Program-made: the position numbers and the translations under genes
Shown here: one piece after another, positions 6,046 to 62,973 of the stretch
How the letters are laid out: every line of letters begins with the position of its first letter
Position numbering within the stretch: position 1 is the stretch's first letter
Notes under the pieces: generated by a model
The model's database searches: none
What the model was told of the DNA's origin: nothing
The model's input: only the letters and a program-made list of their open reading frames with translations
Source: Octopus sinensis
Taxonomy: Eukaryota
Direction: 5' to 3'
Assembly: GCF_006345805.1 (NCBI RefSeq)
Contig: NC_043016.1
Coordinates: 6,324,001-6,388,000, forward strand
DNA length: 64,000 bases

Positions 6046-8742
6046 TGTAGCAATATCGTTACACTCATTGCTATCTTCACTGTTTGAGAAGAGTATTAAG
6101 AATAATCTCGTTCGAGATTACAAACATCTTCGGCTAGTTTAACATTGTTGTAAACACTAATTCGATTGGCTGACACGTGGTCTCTACTACGTTCGCACCG
6201 TTGGTTGTCATGTGACGCGATTTGCCTCCGCTTATTTTCGCGCCATTGTTCCAAGCAGCCAATCACAGCTTTCCATTTCTGAAGTTAGTTTTGAGCCACA
6301 TAAACCTTATAAAAGAAGTGTTCTCAGACAAATATCCGTCTTAGGTTTTTAGTTCTTTTCAGAACTAACCACTGACCACAGAGCTCGTCTTTGGTTCAAG
6401 TCCTTCTCAGGGCGAACTTCTGACCATACAGAGCATACTCGACCATGTTCCAGTTTGAAAGGCAGGCGACCACCATTAATACAAGATGTTACAGATTCCT
6501 CTCATATTGTTAGTGTGAAAATATCACCACGAAAAGAACGGTTACAGGATATCTATAACTAGAGAAAAATAACCAAGCAGAATATATAATGAAGACACAG
6601 CAAAAAAGAAAGCGACAGACACAACTCATCGCCAAACATCGTCTCTATCTACTAAGGTTTAATTTGTACACAAGACAACTACAGATTCAACTATAGCGGT
6701 TAGGTGAAAATATCACCACGGGAAAAACGGCTACAGTTAACACATCTGGAAGTATATTCATATCAAGAGAAAGATAAACACAACAAGTGACTCAATTAAT
6801 CTCAACTACGAGACGCAACATCTTGATATGGAACTCTTACCCTCCGTGTACCTCATAAACGGTAAATCAATTATCTGTCTTGAGTTCTAGTTCTTCTAAG
6901 AACTACCTTAAGCCATCTGCTACTACCTGTTGCTAGGCTGATACCAACAACATGAACTGTGAACCAAATTCCATTGTTATTTCTCTGGTCAGTACCTTTT
7001 ATGCCTCACGAACACACAAAAACATGCTAACACTTACAAACTTCCAACCAACATGATTGTAAAATATATAAAATAAATAACGTATATGTAGCCAGTACCG
7101 CATCGACTGGCCTCCGTGCTGTGGGCACATGACAAACACCATCCGATCGTGGCCGTTCGCCAGCCTCATCTAGCACCTGTGTCGGTGGCACATAAAAACA
7201 CCATCCGAAGACCCGGCAAGACTAGTCAGGCCATAACCCATGGCCCCTACCTGGGACGTAGTCAGTCCACCTGTGCATACCTTCCTTCTTGTGACACTTG
7301 TGAAGACCTGTTGAGGCAAGTGAAAATCAAATCAAAACAAATCAAAATAGATGAACATCAATGGAATCTGTATCTTTGTGGTACCAGTGCCGGTGGCACA
7401 CACTTTGTGGTACCAGTGCCGGTGGCACACGAGAACCATCCGAACGTGGCCGTAGCCAGTTCCGCATCGACCGGCCTCCGTGCTGTGGGCACGTAACAAA
7501 CACCATCCGATCATGGCCGTTCGCCAGCCTCATCTGGCACCTGTGTCGGTGGCATAAAAACACCTTCCGAAGACCCGGCAAGACTAGTCAGTCCACCTGT
7601 GCATACCTTCCTTCTTGTGACACTTGTGAAGACCGGTTGAGGCAAGTGAAAATCAAATCAAATCAAAATAGACAAAATAGATGAACATCAATGGAATTTG
7701 TATCTTGTGGTACCAGTGCCTGTGGCACACAAGAAATCCATCAGTGCCGTAGTCAGTGTGGTGGGCACATGACAAACACCATCCGATCGTGGCCGTTCGC
7801 CAGCCTCATCTAGCACCTGTGTCGGTGGCACATAAAAACACCATCCGAAGACCCGGCAAGACTAGTCAGGCCATAACCCATGGCCCCTACCTGGGACGTA
7901 GTCAGTCCACCTGTGCATACCTTCCTTCTTGTGACACTTGTGAAGACCTGTTGAGGCAAGTGAAAATCAAAACAAATCAAAATAGATGAACATCAATGGA
8001 ATTTGTATCTTTGTGGTACCAGTGCCGGTGGCACGTGGCACATAAGAAAACCATCCGAACGTGGCCGTAGCCAGTACCGCATCGACTGGCCTCCGTGCTG
8101 TGGGCACGTAACAAGCACCATCCGATCGTGGCCGTTTGCCAGCCTCATCTGGCACCTGTGTCGGTGGCACATAAAAACACCATTCGAGCGTGGCCGTCTG
8201 CCAGCCTCGTCTGGCACCTGTGTCGGTGGCACATAAAAACACCATCCGAGCGTGGCCGTCTGCCAGCCTCGTCTGGCACCTGTGTCGGTGGCACATAAAA
8301 AACACCATCCGAGCATGGCCGTCTGCCAGCCTCGTCTGGCACCTGTGTCGGTGGCACATAAAAAACACCATCCGAGCGTGGCCGTTTGCCAGCCTCGTCT
8401 GGCACCTGTGTCGGTGGCACATAAAATCACCCACTACACTCTCGGAGTGGTTGGCGTTAGGAAGGGCATCCAGCTGTAGAAACACTGCCAGATCTGACTG
8501 GACTGGTGCAGCTTTCGGGCTCCCCAGACCCCAGTTGAACCGTCCAACCCATGCTAGCATGGAAAGCGGACGTTAAATGATGATGATGATGATGATGATG
8601 ATCTCAAAAAGAAATCATGTTGTCATCCCACGTGTGTATCGCCGCTGTATGTATTATATGGTCTGTAATAACTCATTAAGAATGGGACCGCGTGCGATTG
8701 TATTTCCTACACAATACGACAGCATGTGATCCTATTTTTATA
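6046..8742 (+). mobile_element. Probable solo LTR, interrupted by an RTE UTR concatemer at 7088-8601
   Basis: Starts TGTAGCAATA, ends TATTTTTATA, 4-bp TSD CCTC (6042-6045, 8743-8746). Removing it restores the host frame KGKGDVLMGGNY. Internal ATTGG/CCAAT boxes and TATAAAA near 6308. Confidence 0.7.
7088..8601 (+). mobile_element. PHD-RTE 3' UTR concatemer with terminal ~7-unit array and GAT tail
   Basis: ORF-end motif GAAGACCCGGCAAGACTAG at about 7207, 7570 and 7847; array 8030-8430; tail to 8601. Confidence 0.9.
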
Positions 8743-18280: not shown

Positions 18281-20815
18281 AATGAGCCACTCCACGTTGG
18301 TCACCAGAGCAATATTTGATCACTTTATAGAGTGTTTGAGTGTCGGTTTGGTGTCTAGAATGGGATAGCTTGCCTCATAGGCAAGTAGAAGTTCATTAAA
18401 CTTTGTTGGTTATCTACCTAGAAGGAAATCTCCGAAATAAAACCTGAGGCCTTGGAAGTTCCTGGTTTTGTCAATTTTCATGTCACACCAGAGAAAATTT
18501 TCTTGGGCCAATAGGTGGGGGTAGTGCAGTGCAAGCTACACCCACTGAAAATTATTCATCTGCACAGGTACTTCCTGTACTCCAAATCTTAGTGAAATCA
18601 TTGAATTGGTTGGTTGGCAGAAACTTAAAAATGCACTTGTAACTTATTCTAAAATGTCTCAAACAGATTCAGTAAATGGCAAAAAAGGCTTGGGAATGTC
18701 AGGGGAACAGGTCTGGCTCGGCAGGTGTCCTAGTATATCACAGGCTGGGCCCAGTCGTCATCCTGCCACTGTGGTCAATCTTCAAGAAAAAGTAAAAATA
18801 AACATCCCTTCAATTTTGGCTGTTGGAATGTGTGCACACTTATTCATGATAATTTCGTCGAGAGGATAGAAAGGCGTACTGAATTTATTGCATGTGAGCT
18901 TAAGAAATATTCCCTTGATATAGTTGCACTCTCTGAAACTTGTCTCTCTGGTGAGGGTCAAGTAAATGAACCTACTTATGGATGTCCTATCTTTTGAAAA
19001 GGCCTACCTAAGGGTCAGCGTAGAGAATCTGGTATTGAGTTTGCTTTCAAGAATTCATTAGTATCCTCCATTGCAGAGCTTCCAAGTAGTGCATCTGAAT
19101 GGATCATGTCATGCCATATTAAACTGACAGTATTTATGCACCAACAATGTCCCATTCTGGTGAAACTGTAGGACAGTTTCATGATGATCTAGCACAATTA
19201 TTGAGGAAAGTACCAATTTCTGACAAGCTGGTTATATTGGGAGATTTCAATGCAACAGTTGGAAAAGACTATGTTTCATGGCCTGTTTTAGGTCAACATG
19301 GAATTGGAAAATGTAATAAAAATGGAGTAGCTCTTTTGACGTTTTGTACTGAGAATAATATGGTTGTTATCAATACTCTGTTTAAGCAGGAAAATAAATA
19401 TAAAACCACCTGGATGCACTCAAGATCTAAGCACTGGCATCTCATAGAATATATTTTGATCAGAAAACATATGAAAGACGTTTCTGGCAGCAGAGTGGAG
19501 AGCTGGACTGACCATCATCTAGTGTGTGGAAAAATAAATTTTTTGATAATGCCTAAAAATCAACAGTCTGGTTCTAAGGTACCCAAAAAGTTAAATGTTG
19601 CAACCTTTAAATTATCAAGCAACTTACAAAGATTCCGCGATGCTATAGAAAGTATCACTCTTGACCCAAACAATCGATGGGAAGATTTCAAAAGAAAAGT
19701 ATTTCAGGTTGCAAGTTCATCAGTGGTATTTAAATCACATAAGTCCAGTGACTGGTTTTCAGATAGATCAGCAGAAATTCATGATCTACTTTTAGAAAAA
19801 CAAAACTTAGGCAATACACTTCTTTCTCAGTCCTTGAACCCCAACTCAAATGAAACTTACATAAAGCTGCAAAGGAAAGTGCAGACTGCTCTAAGGAAAA
19901 TTAAACAGGAATGGTGGAATGATAGAGCAAAAGGGGCACAAGAAGCAATTGATAGAAATAATGCCAAGGCTTTGTACTTTTATGTTAAGGAGGTATATGG
20001 CTCAAAATCTTCTTCAGTAGCTCCAGTGGGAACAGCAAATGAACATTTGCTTCTGACTGACACCGCTTCTATTCATAAGCGCTGGGTAGAACATTTTTCT
20101 GCACTTTTGAATAAACCATCCTCCGCTGACATGAGGATGGTAGCAAAAAAACACCTTCCAGTTATAGAAGAGATGGTATTTGAACCAACTCTAAGTGACA
20201 TTTATATAGCTGTGAATAAACAATAAGCCTCCAGGGTCTGATGGAATCTGTGCAGAAGTCTTGAAATATGGCAGTGACAAAATGTTTGAACTCTTAAATT
20301 TATTAATTAGTCACTATTGGAGAACCGAGAAAGTACCTCATGACTGGATTGATGCCATTTTTAGTCTCCTTGTATAAATCAGGGCCAAAGGATCTGTGTG
20401 GTAATTTTCTTGGGATTTCGCTTTTGTCTCTGGTTGGAAAGGTACTTGCCCGCATTCTGTTAGAAGGTTTAAATACCTTCATAGTTCCACATATGGTATC
20501 TGAGTCTCAGTGTGGTTTTCGTTCCTCCAGGGGCAGAGCTGATTGTATCTTTACTATCAGACAATTGCAAGAAAAGTGCATTGAACAGAAACTTGCTCTA
20601 TACCATTGTTTTATTGATTTGAGCAAAGTATTCGATACTGTTAATCGAAATGCTTTGTGGCTAATTCTAAGGAAAATAGGTTTCGCAGAAAAATTTGTAA
20701 ACATGATCAGGGCTTTGTATCAAGATATGAAAGCTAGAGTTAATTTTGGTGGTAGGCTCTCTGAATTTTTTTGCTGTGAAAAATGGAGTAAAGCAAGGAG
20801 ACCTTGATGTACCCA
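18281..20815 (+). mobile_element. RTE/BovB-like LINE relic: 5' UTR, APE endonuclease, N-terminal RT; 3' truncated
   Basis: ILGDFNA, TWMHSRSKHWHLI, WTDHHLV, GISLLSLVGKVLAR, SESQCGFR, FIDLSKVFDTV, GVKQG; stops and frameshifts. Confidence 0.95.
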
Positions 20816-29959: not shown

Positions 29960-30804
29960 ACCCATCCGTTTGTGTCCGCTGTCAGACTCGTCTGGCACCT
30001 GTGCCGGTGATACGTAAAAGCACCATTCGCTCGTGGCCGTTTGCCAGCTCTGCCTGGCCCCGTGTCGGTGGCACGTAAAAGCACCATCCATTCGTGTTCG
30101 TTGCCAGCCTCGCCTGGCCCCGTGTCGGTGACACGTAAAAGCACCGTCCGTTCGCGGCCGTTTGCCAGCTCTGTCTGGCCCCGTGTCGGTGGCACGTAAA
30201 AGCACCATCCGTTCGTGGCCATTTGCCAGCTCTGTCTGGCCCCGTGTCGGTGGCACGTAAAAGCACCATCCGTTCGTGTCCGTTGCCAGCCTCGGCTGGC
30301 CCCCGTGCCAGTGACACGTAAAAGCACCGTCCGCTTGTGGCCGTTTGCCAGCTCTGTCTGGCAACCGTGTCGGTGGCACGTAAAAGCACCATCCGTTCGC
30401 ATCCGTTGCCAGCCTTGGCTGGCCCCCGTGCCGGTGACACGTAAAAGCACCGTCCGTTCGTGGCCGTTTGCCAGCTCTGTCTGGCCCTGTCTCGGTGGCA
30501 CGTAAAAGCACCATCCGTTCGTGTCCGTTGCCAGCATCGCTTGGCCCCGTGCCGGTGACACGTAAAAGCACCATCCGTTCGTGGCCGTTCGCCAGCTCTG
30601 TCTGGCACCTGTGCAGGTGGCACGTAAAAAACACCCACTACACTCGCGGAGTGGTTGGCGTTAGGAAGGGCATCCAGCCGTAGAAACACTGCCAGATCTG
30701 ACTGGGCCTGACGAAGCCTTCCAGCTTCACAGACCCCAGTTGACCCGTCCAACCCATGCTAGCATGGAAAGCGGACGCTAAACGATGATGATGATGATGA
30801 TGAT
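29960..30804 (+). mobile_element. PHD-RTE 3' UTR-only copy with 11-unit array
   Basis: CGTAAAA recurs at about 61-bp spacing from 30013 to 30623, then terminal domain and GAT tail. Confidence 0.93.
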
Positions 30805-34274: not shown

Positions 34275-35745
34275 TTCAAGACAGGATGCCCCTGGGAGCT
34301 CCTCTATGCTGATGACCTTGCTCTAATTGCTGAGTCACTATCAGAACTGGAGGAGAAGTTTCAGGTGTGGAAGCTAGGATTAGAATCAAAGGGCCTTAGA
34401 GTCAACCTAGCTAAAACCAAAGTCCTAATAAGCTGGAAGGTAGACAAATCACAAACGCCTTCAGGTAGATGGCGCTGCTCAATCTGTAGAAAAGATGTAG
34501 GTAGAAACTCTATAAGATGCACCAAGTGTAAGCTATGGACACATAAGAGGTGCAGCAATGTCAAAGGAAGGCTAAATAGGAAAATAGTTTTTGTATGTGG
34601 CAGATGCTCTGGTGCAATAAACACTAAAAATGTGCAGAGACCATCTTCCGCCACATTCCAGGGAGAAAAACTAGAAATAGTTGATAGTTTCCATTACCTA
34701 GGTGATCAAGTCAGTAGCAGGGGCAGGTGTGCTGAAAGTGTAACTGCTAGAGTAAGAATAGCCTGGGCAAAGTTCAGAGAGCTCTTACCTCTGCTGGTAA
34801 CAAAAGGCCTCTTGCTCAGAGTAAAAGGCAGACTATATGACGCATGTGTACGAACAGCCATGCTTCATGGCAGTGAAGCATGGGCTGTGACTGCTGAGGA
34901 TATGCGTAAGCTTGCAAGAAATGAAGCCAGTATGCTCCGATGGATGTGTAATGTCAGTGTTCATACCTGACAGAGTGTAAATACCTTGAGAGAAAGGTTG
35001 GGCCTAAGAAGCATCAGATATGGTGTGCAAGAGAGTTGTCTACACTGGTATGGACATGTGGTAAGAATGGATGAAGATAGTTGTGTGAAAAAGTGCCACA
35101 CCCTAGCAGTTGAGGGAACATGTTGAAGAGGTAGACCTAGGAAAACCTGGGACGAGGTGGTGAAGCACGACCTTTGCTCTTTAGGTCTCACCGAGGAAAT
35201 GACCAGAGAACGAGACCTTTGGAAGTATGCTGTGCGTGAGAAGACCCGGCAGGACAAGTGAGGCCATAACCTGTGACCTCTACCTGGGACATAGTCAGTC
35301 CACCAGTGCATACCTTTCTTCTTGGGACACAAAGCTCTACTTGTGAAGACCTGTTGAGGCAAGTGAAAATCAAAATCGAAATCGATCAACATCAATGGAA
35401 TTTGTAGCCGTGATACCAGTGCCGGTGGCACGTAAGGGAACCATCCGAACGTGGCCGTAGCCAGTGCCGCATCGCCTGGCATCCGTGCTGGTGGTACGTA
35501 ACAAACACCATCCGATCGTGTCTGTTGCCAGCCTCGCCTGGCCTCCGTGCTGGTGGCACGTAAAAAGCACCATCCGGGCGTGGCTGTTCGCCAGTCTCGT
35601 CTGGTACCTGTGTCGGTGGCATCCAGCTGTAGAAACACTGCCAGATCTGACTGGGCCTGGTGCAGCCTTCGGGCTGCCCAGACCCGAGTTGAGCCGTCCA
35701 ACCCATGCTAGCATGGAAAGCGGACGTTAAATGATGATGATGATG
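34275..35745 (+). mobile_element. PHD-RTE LINE, 5'-truncated
   Basis: LYADD, KTK, intact C4HC3 insert, FHYLG, HGSEAW, premature stops, array, GAT tail. Confidence 0.97.
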
Positions 35746-42245: not shown

Positions 42246-43039
42246 GCCTCTCTGCAAAGTGCTTCTAAACAGCCCAAAAGAGGCTTTGTAACAGCTGATC
42301 CTGCACTGAACAAATGTTCCCATTCAGATATATTATTGTTGAGTGTGCTGAGCATCAAAGACCACTGAAGCTAAATTTTATAGACTTTAATTCTCCTCTC
42401 TATTATATATACATACAAATGAACATAGTAAATAACAGCTAACCTTTGCCTGCATTTTGGACCCTGTTGTGTCCACTACTCTGATTGGCTGGTATTGGCA
42501 CAATTTGTCTCTTGCTCTATCACACACCAATATGCAACCCAACCAATCACAGCCTTCAAATAAGGTCACATATGACAGTTTGTTTTCTACCCAGCTTTGA
42601 GCCTACAACTTCTTATAAAACTCCAGCTTCTCCTCATCTTGATGTCTTTCAGTTCCAGACCTTTTAAGGTCTAGCCACTGACCACACAAGACACAGCCAG
42701 TTCCAACGACAACATGACAGTAGCCACATGAAGATTCACTAACTTTGGTGACCTCCATCTCCATCGCCACCATTTGTCCTAACATCAAAATCTCTCTACG
42801 TACTTGCCCAGGTTACAACACTGCACTGTTCGTGAATTACTTCATCATGGATCAACAATGAATATACAACCTGTGCGAACTCCTGTACAAAGTGACCTAG
42901 GCTGCAGCATCACAGCCACAACTTCACGTATGACATGTACCGCAACCATCTCTACATCATTGCCGCAACTTCTTGATAAAGTATTTCAACTATCATGTAC
43001 AATTGACAATGAACTGGTACTTATAAGGTGCTAAATAAC

Positions 43040-57315: not shown

Positions 57316-57727
57316 AACGACAACTTGCAGAAAATCTATATAATCATCTAGAAAATAACCTACTTCCAGAAGAGGAGAAAGGATGCAGGAAAGAAAGAAA
57401 AACAACAGATGACCACTTTTAAGTTGATAAAATGATATTTAGAAATTGTAGATGTAGATTGATGGGATTGACTGTAGCATGGCCAGATTACAAAAAAAAA
57501 AAAGCATATGTCATAAGTACTGCACAATTAGATAGTTAAAACAACGAGGATGTTTGGAGTAGCAGAAGATATGGAGAAAATGGTTAATGAAAATATGAAA
57601 CATTGGAATACTGAATCGATTGGAGGGAAACAAAAACTTGGAGAAGTGAACATCAGGCGTGGAATATTTGAAGGTGATTGTTTATCTCCATTACTATTTT
57701 GTATAGACCATGACATTGCTCACTATG

Positions 57728-58203
57728 TATAAGATCTGGTCATCAAATCTAAGTAGAGATTTCAAACTTCAAGTCTTCAAAGCCACAGTCGAACCAATTC
57801 TACTATATGGCTCAGAAACCTGGACGTTATCAAAGAAGCTTGAGAGGCGGTTGGATGGAACTTACACTCGCCTCCTTATGAGAGCTCAAAATCTCTTGTG
57901 GAAGCGCCATCCAACCAAAATGCAAATATATGGGAAACTACCACCTGTGTCATCTCTTGTGAAAGGTAGAAGAGTCCAGTTTGATGGACATTGTTGTAGA
58001 GCTGAAAACGAGGTAATTTCTACTCTTCTCCTCTGGAAGCCATCTACTCGCAATACCAGAGGGCGCACACTTTCCTACCCTGATGTAATCTCCAGGGATA
58101 CAGGCATCCAGCAACAGGACCTCCGTAATGCCATGATGGACCGTGAAGTCTGGCGTAGCATGGGTAATTCCATTGTCTCGACCACGGTGGAACAATGATG
58201 ATG
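57728..58203 (+). mobile_element. 5'-truncated RTE thumb fragment, another family
   Basis: KIWSS..VEPILLYGSETWTL..GHCCRA..MMDREVWR*, stop running straight into a GAT tail. Confidence 0.9.
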
Positions 58204-60136: not shown

Positions 60137-62973
60137 AGATCCTGCAAATGGACAGAGATTTAGGGACATATTACTTGAAGCCTCTGACGAAGTAGAAGGG
60201 GATAGAGCATCACAGGGGGTAGAAGACAGCTGGACGTTTCTAAGGGACAACCTGCTGAGAGCCACTGATCAGATCTGTGGCTGGTGCAAAGTCCCCTCTC
60301 GACCTCGAATAACGTGGTGGTGGAACAATATTGTAGACAGGGCTATTAGAGAAAAGGCTTGGAAGGTCTGGAAAAATGGGGGTAGCAGGGAATTGTATCA
60401 GACTGCCAAAAGAGAAGCTAGGAGACAGGTTTATTTAGCCAGAGGGGAGCAGATAAGAAAAAATTTGCCAATGTTCTGCGCCGTGAGGACCAAAGACTGG
60501 AGGTGTTTCGCGTTGCAAGACAGTGTGTGAGAGAGAATCGTGATGTGGTAGGAGAGAAGTGTGTTCGCATGGAAGATGGTTCACTTGCGCTAAATGAGGA
60601 TGCAAAGAGAGAGGTTTGGAGATGCCACTATGAAAGGTTGCTGAATGAAGAAAATGAATGGGATAAAGAGAGTCTGCCGAATGTTGACCCAACAGAGGGA
60701 CCAGCTATCCGAGTTGATAGTTCCGTGGTAGCTAAGGCAATTAGAAGCATGAAGACAGGAAAAGCCCCAGGCCCATCAGGAATCACTGCAGAGATGCTCA
60801 AAATGTCTGGTAGTGTCGGCTATAGCCTAGTCACCCGTATAGTTAATCAGGTGATACACAAAGGAGTCATACCCAATGACTGGTGTAGCAGTATAATAGT
60901 CAACTGCTACAAAGGTAAAGGTGATGCCCTAGATACAATAACTACAGAGGTATCAAGCTGTTGGATCAGGTGATGAAGGTTACGGAGAGGGTCATAGCCC
61001 AACTAATTAGAGAGAGAGTTAGTTTAGATGAGATGCAGTTTGGGTTTGTGCCAGGGAAAAGTACTACTGATGCTATATTCCTGGTAAGGCATCTGCAGGA
61101 GAAATACCTAGCCAAAGATAAGCCCCTGTACCTGGCTTTTGTTGACATGGAGAAAGCCTTCGACAGGGTCCCCCGATCCCTTATCTGGTGGGCAATGTGG
61201 AAACTAGGGATAGATGAATGGTTAGTGAGAGCTGTGCGGGCCATGTATAGGGACGCTGCTAGTAGGGTGAGGGTTGGAAATGAGAGTACAGTGAAGAATT
61301 CCGGGTAGAGGTAGGGGTCCACCAAGGCTCAGTACTCAGCCCCCTCCTATTTACCATAGTCCTCCAGGCAATAACGGAGGAATTCAAGACAGGATGCCCT
61401 TGGGAGCTCCTCTATGCTGATGACCTTGCTCTAATTGCTGAGTCGCTATCAGAACTGGAGGAGAAGTTTCAGGTGTGGAAACAAGGATTAGAATCGAAGG
61501 GCCTCAGAGTCAATCTAGCTAAAACCAAAGTCGTAATCAGTAGGAAGGTAGACAAATCACAAACACCTTCAGGTAGATGGCCCTGCTCGATCTGTAGAAA
61601 AGGTGTAGGTAGAAACTCTATAAGATGCACCAAGTGTAAGCTATGGACACATAAGAGATGCAGCAATGTCAAAGGAAGGCTAACTAGGAAGATGGTTTTT
61701 GTATGTGGCAGATGCTCAGGAACAATAAACACTGAAAATGCTCTGAGACCAACTTCCGTCACTTTCCAGGGAGAAAAACTAGAAATAGTTGATAGTTTTC
61801 CGTTACCTAGGTGACCAAGTCAGCAGCGGGGGGGGGTGTGCTGAAAGTGTAACTGCTAGAGTAAGAATAGCTTGGGCAAAGTTCAGAGAGCTCTTACCTC
61901 TGCGGTGACAAAAGGCCTCTCGCACAGAGTGAAAGGCAGACTGTATGATGTTTTGTACGAACAGCCATGCTACATGGCAGTGAAACATGGGCCGTGACTG
62001 CTGAGGATATGCGTAAGCTCGCTAGAAATGAAGCCAGTATGCTCCGATGGAGGTGTAATGCCGGTACTCACACTCGGCAGAGTGTAAGTACCTTGAGAGA
62101 AAAGCTGGACCTAAGAAGCATCAGTTGTGGTGTGCAAGAGAGACGTTTGCGCTGGTATGGTCATGTGGCGAGAATGGATGAAGATAGTTGTGTGAAAAAG
62201 TGCCACACCCTAGCGGTTGAGGAAACTGTGGAAGAGGCAGACCCAGGAAAACCTGGGACGAGTGGTGAAGCACGACCTTCGAACTTTAGGTCTCACCAAG
62301 GAAATGACTAGAGACCGAGACCTCTGGAAGTGTGCTGTGCGCGAGAAGACCCGGCAGGACAAGTGAGTCCATAACCCGTGGCCTTCTACATGGGATGGAG
62401 CCAGCCTACGTATGCATACCTTCCCTTCTTGGGACACAAAACTCTACTTGTGAAGATGTGTTGAGGCAAGTGAGGATCAGAATCGAAATCGATCAATGGA
62501 AATTGCAGATGTGTTACCAGTGCCGGTGGCATGTCGAAACTCTACTTGTGAAGACCCGTTGAGGCAAGTGAGGATCAGAATCGAAATCGATCAATGGAAA
62601 TTGCAGATGTGTTACCAGTGCCGGTGGCATGTAAGAGAACTTTCCGATTCGCGACCGTTGCCAGCACCGCCCCGTTTCGTGTCCGTTGCCAGCCTCGCCT
62701 GGCCCTCATGCCGGTGGCACATAAAAAGCACCATCCGTTCGTGGCCGTTTGCCAGCTCTGTCTGGCACCAGTGCGGGTGGCACATAAAAAGCACCCACTA
62801 CACTCACGGAGTGCTTGGCGTTAGGAAGGGCATCCAGCCGTAGAAACACTGCCAGATTTGACTGGGCCTGATGAAGCCTTCTGGCTTCACAGACCCCAGT
62901 AGAACCGTCCAAACCATGCTAGCATGGAAAACGGACGCTAAACGATGATGATGATGATGATGATGATGATGAT
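60137..62973 (+). mobile_element. Longest PHD-RTE LINE copy: linker, RT, PHD, thumb, UTR array, tail; frameshifted
   Basis: KAPGPSGI, EMQFGF, FVDMEKAFD, LYADD, KTK, C4HC3 at 61584-61715, stop at 62364-62366, array, GAT tail. Confidence 0.97.

Follow-up and report, generated by a model that had tools for sequence, protein, structure and literature searches.

In a 64,000-nucleotide window of the Octopus sinensis genome (contig NC_043016.1), a 5'-truncated LINE copy without an ORF carries a tandem array of short units in its 3' UTR (array with tail, 8021-8602). No target-site duplication is evident by eye at this array-bearing copy. Its features, and those of other copies in the window, are the following:

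7091-8026, + strand: three higher-order duplications of about 320-360 nt at the 5' end of the truncated copy (module map, self-BLAST)
7847-7865, + strand: relic of the ORF2 terminus (final codons with the stop), matching the ORF2 end at 62345-62365
8021-8124, + strand: units 1 and 2, with degenerate cores; unit 2 has a hairpin with an 11-nt loop (covariance model match at 8060-8124, 51 bits)
8127-8431, + strand: units 3 to 7, each with spacer, GCCAG/CTGGC hairpin and predicted compact H-type pseudoknot (TRF, covariance model matches of 70-75 bits, pair counts)
8407-8431, + strand: last core, with a predicted fold and a positional homologue in the 5' UTR of a relative, L142
8437-8449, + strand: small hairpin CACTC-NNN-GAGTG with constant stem and variable triloop
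8449-8489, + strand: domain B, 41 nt, a predicted pseudoknot homologous to an RTE 5'-leader element found before the ORF2 AUG
8541-8577, + strand: clade-wide 3' terminal stem-loop and A-rich tail, with two-sided changes in 7 of 10 pairs (0 of 500 shuffles)
8577-8602, + strand: (GAT)n tail (TRF)
29971-30782, + strand: eleven-unit array and tail of another subfamily, with two alternating unit types (TRF, sequence)
34278-35732, + strand: related copy, a PHD-bearing ORF2 fragment (Pfam PHD, E 6e-6) joined to a similar UTR whose start is 83% identical to that of the array copy
60140-62942, + strand: longest copy in the window, of the young subfamily Y, with a broken ORF2 (RVT_1 and PHD by Pfam), UTR and tail; 98-99% identical copies exist elsewhere

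The array was detected by TRF at 8035-8426 with a 63-nt period, 6.2 copies and 89% matches, and the sequence contains seven cores, at 8027, 8100, 8163, 8225, 8287, 8350 and 8413. A preliminary description of this DNA had placed an array here, in the 3' UTR of a LINE, and both the array (8021-8431) and its context are real. The core numbers given for the arrays at 5.2, 10.5, 15.9 and 30 kb were recovered as 3, 3, 5 and 11, and the six units counted at 17.2 kb are, read by eye, about five to six worn ones. A GCCAG-loop-CTGGC hairpin, said to be in every unit, precedes six of the seven cores here and is missing from the first unit of an array. The core itself, given as CGTGC..GCACG-TAAAA-G-CACC, reads TGTGT-C-GGTG-GCACA-TAAAAA(A)-CACC at 8021-8431, with the first two cores degenerate. 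Core-pattern matches number 427 in 1.46 Mb (window and sampled genome) compared to 14 in 454 kb of shuffled sequence. An array was also said to occur in every copy with a 3' end, which does not hold: of the 111 tails of young type, 90 contain at least two cores, 14 a single one and 7 none (median 3), the low counts being due in part to 5' truncation. The duplications upstream of the array contain units 2-3, the last ORF2 codons and the start of the 3' UTR, and a unit-to-ORF-end junction of this type is present in 9 of the 30 closest loci.

The host element is assigned to the RTE-type LINEs on its architecture, its tail and the names of its relatives. The proposal that it encodes a PHD-bearing RT was borne out, with ORF fragments in the window matching the RVT_1, PHD and endonuclease families of Pfam, and one genomic copy of subfamily Y keeps an open frame of 1,059 aa with Exo_endo_phos, RVT_1 and PHD domains. 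This RT had further been regarded as part of a new system, but it belongs to a wide clade and is not peculiar to this locus: 1,225 proteins matched it, most of the 120 listed carry RT and PHD Pfam domains, and the top named relatives come from Octopus species, Hydractinia and a catfish. The PHD finger lies directly after the RT core (61584-61715 in the window), an arrangement common to hundreds of relatives from cnidarians to fish. Relatives of the APE domain are named 'craniofacial development protein 2-like', after a protein that presumably carries the BovB endonuclease. No ORF1 was seen upstream of ORF2 in the octopus 5' regions examined, the tail directly follows ORF2 in 30 of 30 ORF-selected loci, and the 3' end is (GAT)n rather than poly(A) in the array copy and the 30 closest loci.

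The LINE family is young and high-copy, with several young subfamilies. Full tails number 147 in 1.4 Mb outside the window, in a sample weighted to small chromosomes, and 62 in the first 800 kb sampled; the repeat frequency is about one per 10-13 kb of sampled octopus DNA. The tail is not confined to a single family, as had been assumed, and is common to several subfamilies and to older families. Subfamily Y has one array layout in 30 ORF-selected loci, small indels aside; subfamily E has two cores, the first of them rewired, and the type found at 8021-8602 has about 4-10, in loci selected for array likeness. First-look candidate counts, which are rough and come from different queries, are 4,845 for E, 2,596 for Y and 1,017 for the type found here. 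The octopus 5' UTRs are long, pyrimidine-rich and subfamily-specific. By eye, those of subfamilies Y and A (L317-L351) are apparently made of tandem monomers of about 0.5 kb, recalling mouse L1 monomers, and a TATA-like box is visible in one monomer type.

In the last core, the predicted fold comprises S1 (8407-8411 with 8417-8421, including a G-U pair), L1 (8412), S2 (8413-8416 with 8428-8431) and an A-rich L3 (8422-8427). Across 249 sampled units the three helices are paired at 82-98% per position, a range inflated by the anchoring, and an S1 of 5 bp, an L1 of 1 nt, an S2 of 4 bp and an L3 of 6-7 nt are feasible in 225. The hairpin loops of these units vary from 4 to 13 nt, and 160 loop forms occur among 582 units; the unit stems are kept and the loops variable, as the preliminary description had presumed. 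L1 takes all four bases, each at four or more loci in the 249 units, which argues against a sixth S1 pair closing a triloop. In subfamily E, the hairpin has undergone a compensatory change from GCCAG/CTGGC to GCCGG/CCGGC in all 12 E loci printed, one of them with a loop-side change. In the first unit of this subfamily the loop GGTG has become GCTG and the CACC arm has decayed, two events expected together if loop and arm pair. Older families carry GGTGC/GCACC, with one pair shifted from S1 to S2. Among cores with a C at the junction, 24 of 25 retain the G partner that precedes CACC, compared to 117 of 168 among cores with a G junction (p 0.003, for copies that are related).

Outside octopus, the 5' UTR of L142 contains CGAGA-T-GGTG-TCTCG-GTAAAAA-CACT, located 15 nt before domain B (17 nt in octopus), where the whole knot is kept with two compensatory S1 pairs. 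No second strict match occurs in the 394,796 bases covered, and none in 20 shuffles; plain alignment of the core region is weak (26 of 2000 shuffles). Among nine non-octopus segments tested it is the only strict core homologue; a looser knot lies at a similar place in L180 and L292, and no knot was found at the core's place before domain B in L145, L160 and L293. The unit covariance model likewise found only L142, itself part of the model, among 84 non-octopus loci. In 19 hand-picked rows including L142, the knot score beats 500 of 500 shuffles; the S2 helix shows wobble changes and no two-sided change in these rows, and the outer, CpG-type S1 pair shows no covariation in octopus (p 0.17). Nested folding energy, a method that leaves pseudoknots aside, shows no excess over shuffles for single units (z -0.68, +0.26 and +0.22) or for the whole of 8030-8590 (z +0.10). 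The notion of a structured unit holds up, with one subfamily-wide compensatory change in the hairpin; that of an H-type pseudoknot is favoured by the L142 homologue and by the junction and loop variation, but its second helix lacks two-sided change. The GCCAG/CTGGC hairpin very probably forms, and the core probably folds as a pseudoknot.

Downstream of the array, the preliminary description had recognised a single fixed terminal domain, which in fact consists of two parts, the 5'-UTR-derived domain B and the true 3' end. The stem CGTCC..GGACG-TTAAA it named lies at 8541-8577 (z -2.47), and its likeness to the core is genuine. With structure-blind anchors, 27 of 38 tails could be parsed, with 80% pairing compared to 69.6 +/- 2.4% in 5,000 shuffles. 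In 21 rows (the window and 20 others), 92.9% of terminal-stem cells pair and two-sided changes are seen at 7 of the 10 pairs, with a score reached by 0 of 500 shuffles; seven rows had been dropped from this set, six for mis-anchoring or long inserts and one by oversight, and about nine of the 21 belong to one close group. The terminal stem often overlaps the ORF2 stop in relatives, and Hydractinia proteins end in RPTHASMENGR, which is the terminal stem read in frame. By analogy with ZfL2, whose ORF2p recognises a 3' stem-loop (PMC4176376), the terminal stem-loop is likely the element recognised by ORF2p, and so the handle of the RT. In a comparison directed at the Deu/Nin/Meta SINE domains, motifs like CGTCC..GGACG-TTAAA were seen in EbuSINE2, a likeness at motif level in the available part of the PMC5786205 supplement. 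In subfamily E (L281-L291), the ORF2 stop lies on the 3' arm of the first core, as it does on the terminal stem in many relatives.

The main point, missed by the earlier interpretation, is a match between the unit module with its neighbour and the 5' leader that related LINEs carry. All nine non-octopus elements with a recognisable ORF2 start have domain B in their 5' UTR, at a distance of 171-302 nt before the APE motif; among them are all eight metagenome elements with a recognisable APE start, one of these with a variant found by eye. In eight of the nine, an open in-frame ATG follows GGGCAT after 36-42 nt, and the exception looks decayed. Such a fixed position before a start codon, a trait of an IRES or 3' translation enhancer, is not found in octopus tails, where 149 copies show no ATG peak at that distance after domain B. 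Conversely, the printed tails of relatives have no domain B between ORF and terminal stem, and the shared sequence of octopus 5' UTRs has none in 32 loci, true 5' ends being reached in only part of them; four matches in octopus loci all lie beyond the shared 5' UTR sequence. As domain B is absent from octopus 5' UTRs, the octopus lineage has likely shifted a leader into the tail, the direction being read from this distribution. Domain B as a pseudo-LTR, copied from the 5' UTR of the element itself, was also considered and rejected.

In 45 older octopus tails, domain B has a top-base frequency of 0.85 and the terminal stem one of 0.86, compared to 0.75 for the core and 0.67 for the linker. The conservation of domain B would fit binding by ORF2p just as well as binding to ribosomes. 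Helix 1 of domain B shows no significant covariation (59 of 500 shuffles reach its score); helix 2, present in 12 of 14 rows with one row mis-anchored, is suggestive (6 of 2000 shuffles). The stem of the small hairpin at 8437-8449 has an old-versus-young majority identity of 1.00 and its loop of 0.00. Four tRNA-headed or SINE-like loci, picked up with a pattern derived from the octopus tail, have domain B joined to the terminal stem, the tRNA head being visible in L296 only. Domain B also lies away from ORFs, probably in SINEs, in the metagenome animal contigs L158, L159, L191, L192, L202, L211 and L215, and L292-L296 represent animal LINE and SINE sequence in contigs filed as bacterial genome bins, likely by contamination.

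A layout of this kind is known from bipartite RTE derivatives and the bodies of RTE-derived SINEs, in which a mid-5'-UTR segment is joined to the RTE 3' end (PMC5786205, PMC7245038, available parts). Such segments are conserved and sometimes doubled (AviRTE), and in the available part of PMC5786205 their function is stated as unknown. Domain B followed by the terminal stem is the same arrangement, but the carriers described there are non-autonomous, whereas the octopus LINE has an ORF that is not deleted and bears the bipartite layout as its own tail and not in front. The domain-B motif has no match in the available supplement of PMC5786205, in which line breaks could hide it, and domain B appears different from the Ceph-type domain. 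In SolRTE of Nicotiana, another RTE, 5' UTRs have likewise been exchanged and are specific to subfamilies, and the 3' UTR has a variable and a conserved part, but in the accessible portion of that study neither tandem structured units nor a 5'-derived tail domain are described (10.1101/2022.11.04.512097). ZfL2 (PMC4176376) and avian R2 (10.1101/2024.11.11.623112) also have a conserved terminal stem-loop, the latter with a pseudoknot upstream of the 3' stem in a pseudoknot-hinge-stem arrangement; they are single elements from other clades, in which binding was demonstrated. Young octopus RTE LINEs were described by Petrosino et al. 2022 (PMC9115989). The O. bimaculoides RTE may be the array-bearing family. 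RTE-2_OV differs from it in having a C2H2 finger at its terminus and a 3' UTR of microsatellite type (PMC9115989, available part). The literature covered, which lies outside Repbase, Dfam and the papers that first described the Ceph-SINEs and octopus SINEs, holds no description of the array, domain B or a PHD inside an RTE ORF2.

How the units multiplied may be read from the UTRs, which also duplicate at periods of 14, 21, 24-27, 35, about 98-100 and about 330 nt. The relative L150 has a duplication of about 62 nt before domain B in its 5' leader. Short direct repeats abound in the core. In 11 of 104 last units, with several loop backgrounds, a deletion of 15 nt between two TGGCAC copies has taken away the 5' arms of the knot (14 regex matches, three of them dropped as false by eye). 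No copy was found to end at a unit, the GAT repeat following 2 of 565 cores, neither of them a real unit end. The many duplication periods, the repeat-bounded deletion and the lack of unit ends fit stalling and jumping of the RT or later unequal exchange. The units of about 62 nt probably arose by slippage, as tandem copies of the small pseudoknot module predicted in the leader, and one core together with domain B would be the working part. The core has been duplicated recurrently, in old as in young families; selection favouring additional copies is another possible cause. At L310:5100-5701 (element strand), the stretch from last core to (GAT) tail is repeated three times head to tail; in an older family (L221, L223, L231, L244, L074), core and domain B are repeated at a period of about 100 nt, and L226:137-1600 holds about ten copies of a satellite of about 160 nt derived from the core and part of domain B.

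The reading preferred here, given about an even chance of being right as a whole, is that the tail of this RTE-type LINE is a moved 5' leader whose units were born by slippage and whose domain B holds the RNA on ribosomes. By template switching, an autonomous element would have acquired its tail from a bipartite derivative or a SINE, and its own front would have been replaced by tandem promoter monomers. ORF2p would grip the terminal stem and start reverse transcription there, while domain B with about one core would bind the translation machinery; with no AUG following, domain B would keep the RNA on ribosomes, where newly made ORF2p is caught. The RT would stall at the structured core and jump between short direct repeats, so that units are gained or lost, the extra ones being tolerated or mildly useful and not required. 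The Alu domain with SRP9/14 similarly brings its RNA to ribosomes to catch ORF2p (PMC11760393, available part); the working model is alike, but there is no sequence relation, and ribosome binding by domain B is inferred. Its occurrence ahead of an AUG, within SINE-like elements and, in an autonomous LINE, downstream of the ORF makes the position of domain B separable from its function. The question for what reason part of the LINE 5' UTR is retained in RTE-derived SINEs (PMC5786205, available part) thereby becomes testable with short RNAs. The covarying terminal stem, defined for a wide PHD-RTE clade, is useful for RTE template design.

A broader alternative, conceivable though rather doubtful, is that RTEs in general carry a portable, IRES-like ribosome-binding pseudoknot, which in octopus would sit behind the ORF as a 3' translation enhancer or cis-tether, with the upstream knot multiplied for avidity. 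The usual place of this pseudoknot would be before the AUG, SINEs would steal it to reach ribosomes, and its shift behind the octopus ORF would free the 5' end for tandem promoters. If true, it would explain the bipartite build of RTE SINEs.

The preliminary description had proposed a multivalent scaffold. On this view each core is a copy of the stem bound by the RT, and ORF2p would hold the RNA of its own element more tightly the more units are present. S1 with TAAAA does fit the base of the clade's terminal stem (C-G, G-C, a variable third pair and an A-rich run), and the relative L205 terminates with GCACG-TTAA, which is the 3' arm of the core itself. The core is retained in duplications of 24-27, 35, 61-67 and about 100 nt, the contrast between paired stems and varied loops points the same way, and R2 proteins bind a 3' UTR pseudoknot (10.1101/2024.11.11.623112, available part). 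However, subfamily E thrives with two cores and has the largest, if rough, first-look count, which argues against a required scaffold; upstream units are broken at subfamily level, the core's homologue is located in a 5' leader, and the knotless last units and the duplications at other periods leave the scaffold unsupported as a requirement. That no true copy ends at a unit also speaks against it, an argument that bears on priming rather than binding. This explanation is considered unlikely.

To a similar degree improbable is that a SINE-like tail was captured once and has since been a passenger, with only the terminal stem at work and domain B and the units drifting and slipping. The lack of a folding-energy excess and the many duplication periods agree with this, most stem positions are merely invariant, and concerted evolution of arrays can keep units alike. 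On the other hand, domain B is as conserved in old copies as the terminal stem, and more so than the linker, and the GCCGG/CCGGC change throughout the printed E loci and the retained G partner of C-junction cores, albeit among related copies, speak against drift.

Finally, that the units cleave themselves or block nucleases, and in this way process the transcript or protect it, is very improbable: a compact predicted knot with an A-rich linker and a hairpin loop, CCTCGC, reminiscent of L3 of the HDV ribozyme, speak for it, but 7000-8700 has no Rfam match at gathering score, and cleavage in the UTR would separate the RT handle from the ORF. The processing signal earlier suggested was not substantiated by any ribozyme or known RNA family. 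A descriptor of the HDV-like fold (nested double pseudoknot, C-N-R-A in J4/2), used without a positive control, had 0 matches on both strands of three arrays; the hammerhead motif CTGANGA has 0 matches on either strand of 7960-8600; eight relatives' loci gave nothing in Rfam at E<=1. Two scans of viral_contigs likewise gave no match.

Other repeats surround these copies. CCAAT and TATA-like motifs at 6060-7080 and 42440-43010 look by eye like the termini of another repeat, with no long BLAST match listed between the two segments, and fragments of other LINE families without a PHD lie at 19123-20807 and 57707-58198, the first with a 30%-identical endonuclease.
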